5,680 nt of DNA, from positions 1 to 5,680 of IMG/VR virus record IMGVR_UViG_2684622669_000004, one strand, 5' to 3'. Below the pieces are notes generated by a model. It was not told where the DNA came from. It ran no database searches and saw only the letters and a list, made by a program, of their open reading frames with translations. The stretch's first letter is position 1. Each line of letters begins with the position of its first letter. Position numbers and translations under genes: made by a program. Of this stretch, positions 5,317 to 5,427 are shown one piece after another. The stretch is from a virus. Its lineage: Duplodnaviria > Heunggongvirae > Uroviricota > Caudoviricetes.

Positions 5317-5338
5317 AGTCACCTCTGTGTTTATCAGA

Positions 5339-5370
5339 TTGACATACCCTGGCCAGTGCCCACCACTGGC
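5339..5370. promoter_or_regulatory. Consensus -35-like TTGACA (5339-5344) followed by a perfect 7-bp inverted repeat GCCAGTG-cccac-CACTGGC (5352-5370) in the divergent intergenic region
   Basis: Seen directly in sequence. There is no U-tract on either side, so it is more operator-like or an RNA structure than a terminator. No good -10 follows the TTGACA at 16-18 bp. Confidence 0.4.
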
Positions 5371-5406
5371 GGGGTGAAGGCTTAACATATCCAGGGATTC
5401 GGAACC

Positions 5407-5423
5407 GATAAATCCTGATAAAT
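5407..5423. repeat. Two direct GATAAAT repeats spaced 10 bp (5407-5413, 5417-5423) immediately upstream of the endolysin start
   Basis: Seen directly in sequence. One helical turn apart, ending 5 bp before ATG 5428. Confidence 0.5.
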
Positions 5424-5427
5424 ATCC

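Follow-up and report, generated by a model that had tools for sequence, protein, structure and literature searches.

The window analysed here, the 5,680 nucleotides (nt) at positions 1 to 5,680 of the virus record IMGVR_UViG_2684622669_000004, is the late region of a lambdoid Escherichia coli prophage, and our subject is the 111 bp at 5317-5427 that lie between the start of a reverse-oriented open reading frame (ORF) of 86 amino acids (aa) and the start of the endolysin gene R. A preliminary description, made from the letters of the window, had read this interval as a divergent regulatory region that places the endolysin, the reverse gene or both under separate control. From the holin to the endolysin, the locus holds the following features (positions are those of the window).

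4346-4552, plus strand: class II (P21-type) holin gene S, the first gene of the lysis cassette (Pfam Phage_holin_2_1, E=1.2e-32).
4557-5108, plus strand: ydfR-like (DUF1327) ORF of 183 aa (Pfam DUF1327, E=5.9e-42, residues 1-112).
4893-5359: accessory island of 467 bp with low guanine-plus-cytosine (GC) content, delimited by alignment to the uninserted ydfR of the related locus L006.
5316-5056, minus strand: 86-aa orphan ORF, the cargo of the island (phrog_2572, E=3e-50).
5317-5351, minus strand: 5' untranslated region (UTR) of the 86-aa ORF, with the Shine-Dalgarno (SD) sequence GAGGTG (5325-5320) and, on the plus strand, TTGACA (5339-5344).
5352-5370: perfect 7-bp hairpin or palindrome, GCCAGTG-CCCAC-CACTGGC, where the right edge of the variable region recurs.
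5360-5377, plus strand: relic of the ydfR 3' end, CCACCACTGGCGGGGTGA, which reads PPLAG followed by a stop and is homologous to the terminal '...TPPLA' and stop of intact ydfR.
5378-5427, plus strand: conserved ydfR-R spacer, which is the endolysin 5' leader, AU-rich, without SD and with both GATAAAT copies.
5384-5412, minus strand: candidate sigma-70 promoter, TTTATC (5412-5407), a 17-nt spacer and TATGTT (5389-5384).
5428-5680, plus strand: 5' part of endolysin R, a GH24 lysozyme, which leaves the window (Pfam Phage_lysozyme, E=4.6e-8).

The motifs on which the preliminary description drew are present as it gave them. The start codons of R (5428) and of the 86-aa ORF (5316) leave exactly 111 bp between them; TTGACA stands on the plus strand; the inverted repeat pairs GCCAGTG (5352-5358) with CACTGGC (5364-5370) around a 5-nt loop and has no flanking T-run on either side; and the GATAAAT copies, at 5407-5413 and 5417-5423, are 10 bp apart from start to start. 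R does lack an SD, the best duplex between its upstream 20 nt and the anti-SD sequence having an energy of +0.6 kcal/mol, compared with -6.6 for the holin, -8.5 for the ydfR-like gene and -7.1 kcal/mol for the 86-aa ORF. The proximal repeat also has an inverted counterpart of 8 nt (TTTATCAG at 5330-5337 versus CTGATAAA at 5415-5422). In 5000 dinucleotide-preserving shuffles of the 111 bp, the probability of at least one TTGACA on either strand was 0.055, that of a 7-bp inverted repeat with a loop of 3-8 nt was 0.035, and that of a 7-mer direct repeat at a spacing of 7-12 nt was 0.019; all three motif types occurred jointly in 0 of 5000 shuffles, a figure that overstates significance because the classes were picked post hoc. 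A consensus scan of both strands of 5317-5427 returned neither a full sigma-70 promoter nor a terminator. A 9-mer, CACTGGCGG, that recurs in the terminator at 4264-4290 was dismissed, as by our estimate 5.7 kb should contain about 60 pairs of this kind.

Local alignment shows how the interval is put together. The uninserted 3' end of ydfR in L006 aligns to the window up to 4892 (...GACTCCACCG) and resumes at 5360 (CCACCACTGGC...TGAAGGCTTAACATATCC...); therefore, 4893-5359 is a 467-bp insertion in the last codons of ydfR. The pentamer CCACC is duplicated around the insertion (4887-4891 and 5360-5364), and the GC content of the island is 0.39-0.44 against 0.53-0.57 in its flanks. Residues 1-112 of the ydfR-like ORF correspond to YdfR, and past 'TPP' (approximately 4892) the frame continues into inserted DNA, from which the ORF gains about 70 residues of coiled-coil-like sequence; RefSeq treats the copy of this gene in RM8385 as a C-terminally incomplete pseudogene. 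The DUF1327 proteins of related loci are 103-328 aa long and differ in their C-terminal extensions.

Comparison with about 220 related prophage loci shows the interval to be composite; sequence upstream of the R start was compared in approximately 160 loci, drawn from viral contigs, from phage records and from complete genomes of E. coli. Of 5426 such complete genomes, 4174 contain part of the query 5250-5480, RM8385 (E. coli O103) carries an identical copy of the query, and the viable phages 2H10 and PhiR5_1 contain the same region. Homology to the window upstream of R stops at nested points (5418, 5403, 5384, 5375/5360 and 5352): it extends no further left than 5418 in the Qin prophage of K-12, from 5403 in L008, from 5384 in L007, and, in L006, which has an intact 114-aa YdfR and no reverse gene, from 5375 by megablast and from 5360 by sensitive local alignment; in L005 it begins exactly at 5352, and sequence to the left of that point is common only to loci with the 86-aa gene. 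The left arm of the hairpin (5352-5358) falls within the last 8 nt of the island (5352-5359), and its right arm is made of former terminal codons of ydfR. Judged from these alignments, the 111 bp are very probably a patchwork, a scar of recombination and not a dedicated endolysin control region; the composite make-up and the pattern of conservation are the directly observed part of the explanation that follows.

Related prophages have holin S, ydfR, a 50-nt spacer and endolysin R in that order. In the window, a low-GC island of 467 bp with a single reverse-oriented 86-aa orphan gene occupies the last codons of ydfR, so that the interval consists of four pieces: the 5' UTR and ribosome-binding site of the orphan (5317-5351), the end of the island (5352-5359), the stop region of ydfR (5360-5377) and the R leader (5378-5427). 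TTGACA is then a chance hexamer within the 5' UTR of the orphan, and the hairpin is made up of the last 8 nt of the island together with the displaced stop region of ydfR.

The interval between S and R is 315-1100 nt long and takes 21 architectures. An exact-pattern scan of viral contigs for the hairpin plus the leader gave 51 usable loci, and in each of the 51 a reverse ORF preceded by an SD begins 35-54 nt past the hairpin. The set comprises five families, of 210 aa (19 loci), 104 aa (14), 86 aa (9), 91 aa (5) and 95 aa (4), between which no pairwise similarity was found; the idea that they are fast-evolving homologs of one another was rejected on that ground, remote homology among small helical proteins being possible. 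Searches with the 210-, 104-, 86- and 91-aa families returned no known function. On the right, the variable DNA invariably ends at 5352 or 5353, whereas on the left its boundaries differ (4971, 5047, 5089). Because five unrelated reverse orphans join the same block at the hairpin, the holin-endolysin interval is a hotspot for accessory genes. So precise a one-sided boundary is not predicted by neutral mosaicism and is the one feature of the locus that appears not to be fully explained; a constant block of promoter plus hairpin would account for the recurrent junction.

The 86-aa ORF matches phrog_2572, a PHROG of unknown function, and its product had no match in Pfam, NCBIfam or PADLOC. Its 18 homologs are at least 86% identical and almost all from E. 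coli, and a scan of contigs for relatives added one further E. coli locus only. The gene is intact in 74 of 81 copies, with ACG in place of the ATG start in the other 7; indels among cluster representatives are in-frame only, and the ratio of nonsynonymous to synonymous substitution rates (dN/dS) is about 0.32, calculated from 15 substitutions. Some loci have a 1-nt deletion beside the SD. The ORF and the ydfR-like ORF converge, with 53 nt in common at their 3' ends, and in RM8385, where RefSeq does not annotate the 86-aa ORF, a 1-nt deletion within this overlap alters the C-termini of both. On these patterns of substitution, the ORF looks like a real but weakly constrained gene. The protein is acidic (isoelectric point 4.3) and is predicted to form three helices at a mean predicted local distance difference test (pLDDT) score of 72.5; the model had no fold match in the PDB. 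We considered the protein as a regulator acting on the palindrome or the repeats and set this aside for lack of a family match or a PDB fold match, for its acidity and for the moderate confidence of the model; a role as the DNA-binding regulator of the region is unlikely.

Two further signals overlap the reverse gene. A 65-aa ORF without SD (5114-5311, plus strand) lies fully antisense within it, with an apparent dN/dS of about 0.2 that we read as an artefact of third codon positions common to the opposite strand. A sub-threshold Rfam match to GcvB over its 3' end (5001-5178, minus strand; 19.8 bits, E=0.39) is probably due to chance.

On the plus strand, a site resembling pR' (TTGCAA-17-TACATT) stands at 1016, after Q, among the best position weight matrix (PWM) scores of the window, and a strong GC-rich hairpin with a T-run follows at approximately 1096-1121. 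A strong intrinsic terminator lies directly upstream of the holin (4264-4290), and the scan found no plus-strand terminator between the holin and R. This terminator-free interval fits Q-dependent late read-through, and the view that R must depend on something other than simple read-through from the holin finds no support. R is probably transcribed solely within the Q-antiterminated late transcript begun at pR'. Taken by itself, the segment 1016-1121 (plus strand) resembles the short terminated late-promoter transcript of lambdoid prophages; Rfam matches at 1042-1120 to isrK/isrJ- and leader-like families are weak and below threshold.

Translation of R is most likely initiated without SD from an unstructured AU-rich start, as in its relatives. 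The region around the R start is predicted to be unstructured. No same-strand ORF in the window ends at or overlaps the R start; the frame closed by the TGA at 5429-5431 opens no earlier than 5378 and contains no ATG, GTG or TTG. Therefore, translational coupling does not operate here. In its last 16 nt the leader varies among loci (CGATAAATCCCCATG, with one GATAAAT; TTTAATATATCCATG; and, in K-12, CATAAATATCTATG), and all variants are AT-rich and without SD. We also considered whether read-through might extend ydfR into the leader, whose frame stays open between the TGA at 5375 and the TGA that overlaps the R start codon, and rejected this: a stretch of 17 open codons has a chance of about 0.44, and the variable sites of the leader are mostly at codon positions 1 and 2.

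As a minus-strand gene within a plus-strand operon, the 86-aa gene needs a promoter of its own. To this extent the suggestion of separate control for the divergent gene is trivially right; TTGACA as an element of that control is not upheld. Only 35 nt lie between the 86-aa start codon and the hairpin, too few for a promoter plus leader. The complement of the distal GATAAAT supplies TTTATC as the -35 element of a minus-strand candidate with the top PWM score of the region (8.3 bits, the 99.96th percentile of window positions) and a predicted start at approximately 5375-5378, so that the transcript would begin at the hairpin. In 59 distinct leaders both hexamers are essentially invariant, apart from a single low-frequency variant at position 5386 of the -10, and the sites at which leaders commonly vary (5393-5405) fall in the promoter spacer. 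In phage phiSTEC1575-Stx2k, R has been replaced right after its ATG, and the leader with the hexamers still stands beside a reverse gene of 90 aa. This site is the best candidate in the region for the promoter of the reverse gene, though that the promoter lies here is somewhat less likely than not; a weak sigma-70 promoter here, within the R leader, would drive the reverse gene in the lysogen. No matching sequence occurs among the entries listed in the available part of the transcription start site tables of EDL933 (PMC10469882).

Two observations come from other loci. In one class of S-R interval (L144), the minus strand carries a GC-rich hairpin and then TTTCT approximately 90-130 nt left of the R start with no ORF between, which would be consistent with a short transcript of that strand that begins close to R. 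In phiSTEC1575-Stx2k, which keeps the holin, ydfR, the reverse gene and the leader, the place of R is taken by a terminator and another lysis module (L229 1540-1620) with two holin-like genes and an M15 peptidase.

Taken as a whole, the combination of a recombination scar, an endolysin read through from the late promoter and a minus-strand promoter in the leader is the best explanation available, and we lean slightly towards it. Several points weigh against it. The sequences compared are all from E. coli prophages and are approximately 85-100% identical, which makes conservation weak evidence of function. Diversity at leader positions -25 to -1 is 0.052, against 0.242 at third codon positions of R, in leaders pre-selected for similarity, and 0.241 against 0.24 in the unfiltered set; the low value is thus partly due to the similarity filter. 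The candidate promoter matches 7 of 12 consensus positions, below the 9-of-12 threshold of the scan; by our own estimate the chance that none of ten variable sites falls in the 12 hexamer positions is about 0.05; and the same hexamers occur in prophages without any reverse gene (L006), so that their conservation may serve R, or nothing. A recombination mechanism acting through the hairpin might equally account for the recurrent junction there, and the joint rarity of the three motifs in shuffled sequence leaves room for another function.

Other functions for these motifs were weighed in turn. A plus-strand promoter on TTGACA, perhaps gated by a protein at the palindrome, would give the endolysin its own transcript, as the preliminary description had in effect proposed. 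The hexamer is a perfect -35 element and is kept in nearly all of the 81 copies of the 86-aa cargo type, but the PWM score of the site (6.3 bits) comes almost entirely from it: the partner hexamers at 15-19 nt (CCACCA, CACCAC, ACCACT, CCACTG and CACTGG, of which ACCACT is best) are not -10-like, and no hexamer 16-18 nt past TTGACA combines A as its second base with T as its sixth. As part of the cargo 5' UTR, TTGACA occurs only with the 86-aa gene and is absent from every other upstream context of the same R gene, and a promoter for R is disfavoured because the hexamer does not travel with R. The leader itself is ordinary, since it also occurs, both GATAAAT copies included, behind a ydfR on the same strand in L006, which has no divergent gene, and in L008. 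The N-terminus of R has a Gly/Ala-rich segment like that of signal-arrest-release (SAR) endolysins, and its full-length homologs (177 aa) are annotated as lysozyme; SAR endolysins such as R of phage 21 and Lyz of P1 cause lysis when expressed without regulation in the absence of holin, and a constitutive promoter at R would for that reason be harmful. A dedicated promoter for R is thus highly improbable, and separate control of the endolysin is not supported. Hardly better is the chance that the GATAAAT-N3-GATAAAT pair or the 19-bp palindrome serves as an operator bound by a regulator of host or phage origin, one candidate being a response regulator of the OmpR/PhoB type. The two copies are indeed phased by 10 bp, and in the main leader class almost no variation is seen in either of them or in the last 14 nt ahead of the ATG. 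The third, inverted copy at 5330-5337 adds to the pattern, and the pair resembles the CpxR box, GTAAA-N5-GTAAA; however, the resemblance (ATAAA-N5-ATAAA) amounts to 4 of 5 positions per half-site, and working leaders exist with one copy (CGATAAATCCCCATG), with other AT-rich sequence (TTTAATATATCCATG) or with the proximal copy only. One-copy and two-copy leaders differ by a 10-nt duplication or deletion, so that the pair looks like the product of such an event and not like a required pair, and the nearby 86-aa protein, acidic and without a DNA-binding fold, is no obvious ligand. An operator of this kind is very unlikely.

Slightly less remote, but still quite unlikely, is an RNA element, in which the stem-loop at 5352-5370 would act as a processing barrier or stabiliser in the late mRNA; it would shield the R-Rz section of that mRNA, or keep duplexes with antisense cargo mRNA away from the R start. 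The hairpin is stable (-18.9 kcal/mol, z = -2.6, with a stem extended to 12 bp in this window) and constant across five cargo contexts, and the commonest stem change, C5370 to T, retains a G-U pair on the plus strand. Another class (ACCAGTG...CACTGGC) puts the wobble on the minus strand instead, however; stem changes are one-sided or disruptive, and 2 of 4 distinct changes break a pair. Extension of the stem, or covariation, through the cargo flanks was rejected, pairing being no better than with random 25-nt flanks from the same loci or with shuffles (P = 0.1-0.7). Compared with shuffles, the folding of the whole leader is unremarkable (z = -1.45), an Rfam 15 search of the window at E up to 1 had no match inside 5317-5427, and L006, L007 and L008 have a working R with the left arm of the hairpin wholly absent. 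No terminator U-tract follows the stem on either strand (GGGGTGAAGG on the plus strand, CAGGGTATGT on the minus strand), and the hairpin was not among the sites that the terminator scan returned. The locus may also have no function beyond the R start, the motifs being neutral traces of a 10-bp duplication and of illegitimate recombination, with little or no expression of the 86-aa ORF. Each motif singly has a chance rate of 2-5%, the hairpin's right arm can be shown to derive from ydfR coding sequence, and the reverse ORF, an E. coli orphan that RefSeq leaves unannotated in RM8385, has its ACG starts and its frameshifts beside the SD and in the overlap; against this stand its dN/dS and in-frame indels, a good SD in every cargo type, and five unrelated cargo genes at one nucleotide, which are hard to obtain by neutral events alone. 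We regard wholesale neutrality as unlikely. Near it in probability, and still doubtful, is the boldest reading of the hotspot in P21-type lysis cassettes of E. coli lambdoid prophages, in which the 76-nt block at 5352-5427 would be an expression platform, with an antisense promoter and a 5' stem-loop serving orphans of 86, 91, 95, 104 and 210 aa that are swapped to the exact nucleotide, and the cargo expressed in the lysogen would act on lysis control, superinfection or defence.

Upstream of the lysis cassette, the window contains four other genes.

5-346: RusA.
337-1032: antiterminator Q.
1270-1701: TerB-like gene.
2182-4053: SASA/NanS-type esterase.

A full-length Rfam match to the small RNA (sRNA) STnc100 (1870-2056, plus strand; 116 bits, E=7.9e-26) lies in the late operon between the TerB-like and esterase genes, and a run of 11 G at 1176-1186, past the Q terminator and ahead of the TerB-like gene, may be a slipped-strand site. 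The holin of the window has a single start (4334-4348, ATA CAT CAG ATG; 68 aa), whereas those of L005 (55-66, ATG TAC CAG ATG) and K-12 (L009 983-994, ATG AAA TCA ATG; 71 aa) have dual starts; the upstream start from which P21-type holins make their antiholin seems absent from both this prophage and L006.

If the preferred explanation (scar, late read-through and minus-strand promoter) is true, a mosaic junction can mimic a regulatory region, and caution is due with single hexamers and short palindromes. The endolysin family consistently starts without an SD, and the ATGA overlap in K-12 would permit coupling. The S-R interval of very common prophages of E. coli and Shiga toxin-producing E. 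coli, with at least five unrelated reverse orphans on one block, is a defined place to seek functions expressed in the lysogen, and a promoter directed against the late operon at the endolysin start would, if true, be a simple case of transcriptional interference within the lysis cassette. In the literature on ydfR, DUF1327 and lysis-cassette sRNAs we found no report on this region. One paper reports that YdfR binds RNase E and possibly RNA (PMC13232886); therefore, the locus could be a site of RNA-level regulation of lysis genes.

The interval is most aptly seen as the point where a reverse-oriented moron meets a standard endolysin leader. Morons, as in HK97 and HK022, are extra genes with their own expression signals, situated between genes that are adjacent in relatives. 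Like the morons of lambdoid phages, the island stands between ydfR and R, which are adjacent in L006, has a lower GC content than its flanks and carries one small gene of unknown function; this gene faces the other way from the late operon and cannot rely on it for expression. Unlike morons, its best promoter candidate lies in the resident R leader, outside the inserted DNA, and the sole terminator-like site on its strand (4931-4913) is weak, with 7 pairs (3 of them G-C), and lies in coding sequence. The essQ-ydfR-rrrQ-rzpQ segment of K-12 Qin has the holin, DUF1327 and lysozyme families in the same order as the window and, from 5418, the same SD-less start context of R (ATAAATATC[C/T]ATG); in Qin the stop codon of ydfR overlaps the R start (ATGA), which allows translational coupling, whereas in the window the reverse gene and 111 bp intervene. 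Mosaic lambdoid genomes have conserved boundary or linker sequences at module junctions, and the short constant block at 5352-5427, set between interchangeable modules and with nested recombination end points, is like them; it departs from the general boundary model in that five unrelated cargo genes use one end of the block with single-nucleotide precision, at a perfect hairpin. Stem-loops at the 5' terminus, as in ompA, stabilise mRNAs, and if the candidate minus-strand promoter is real, the cargo transcripts would likewise start within a few nucleotides of a stable GC-rich hairpin.

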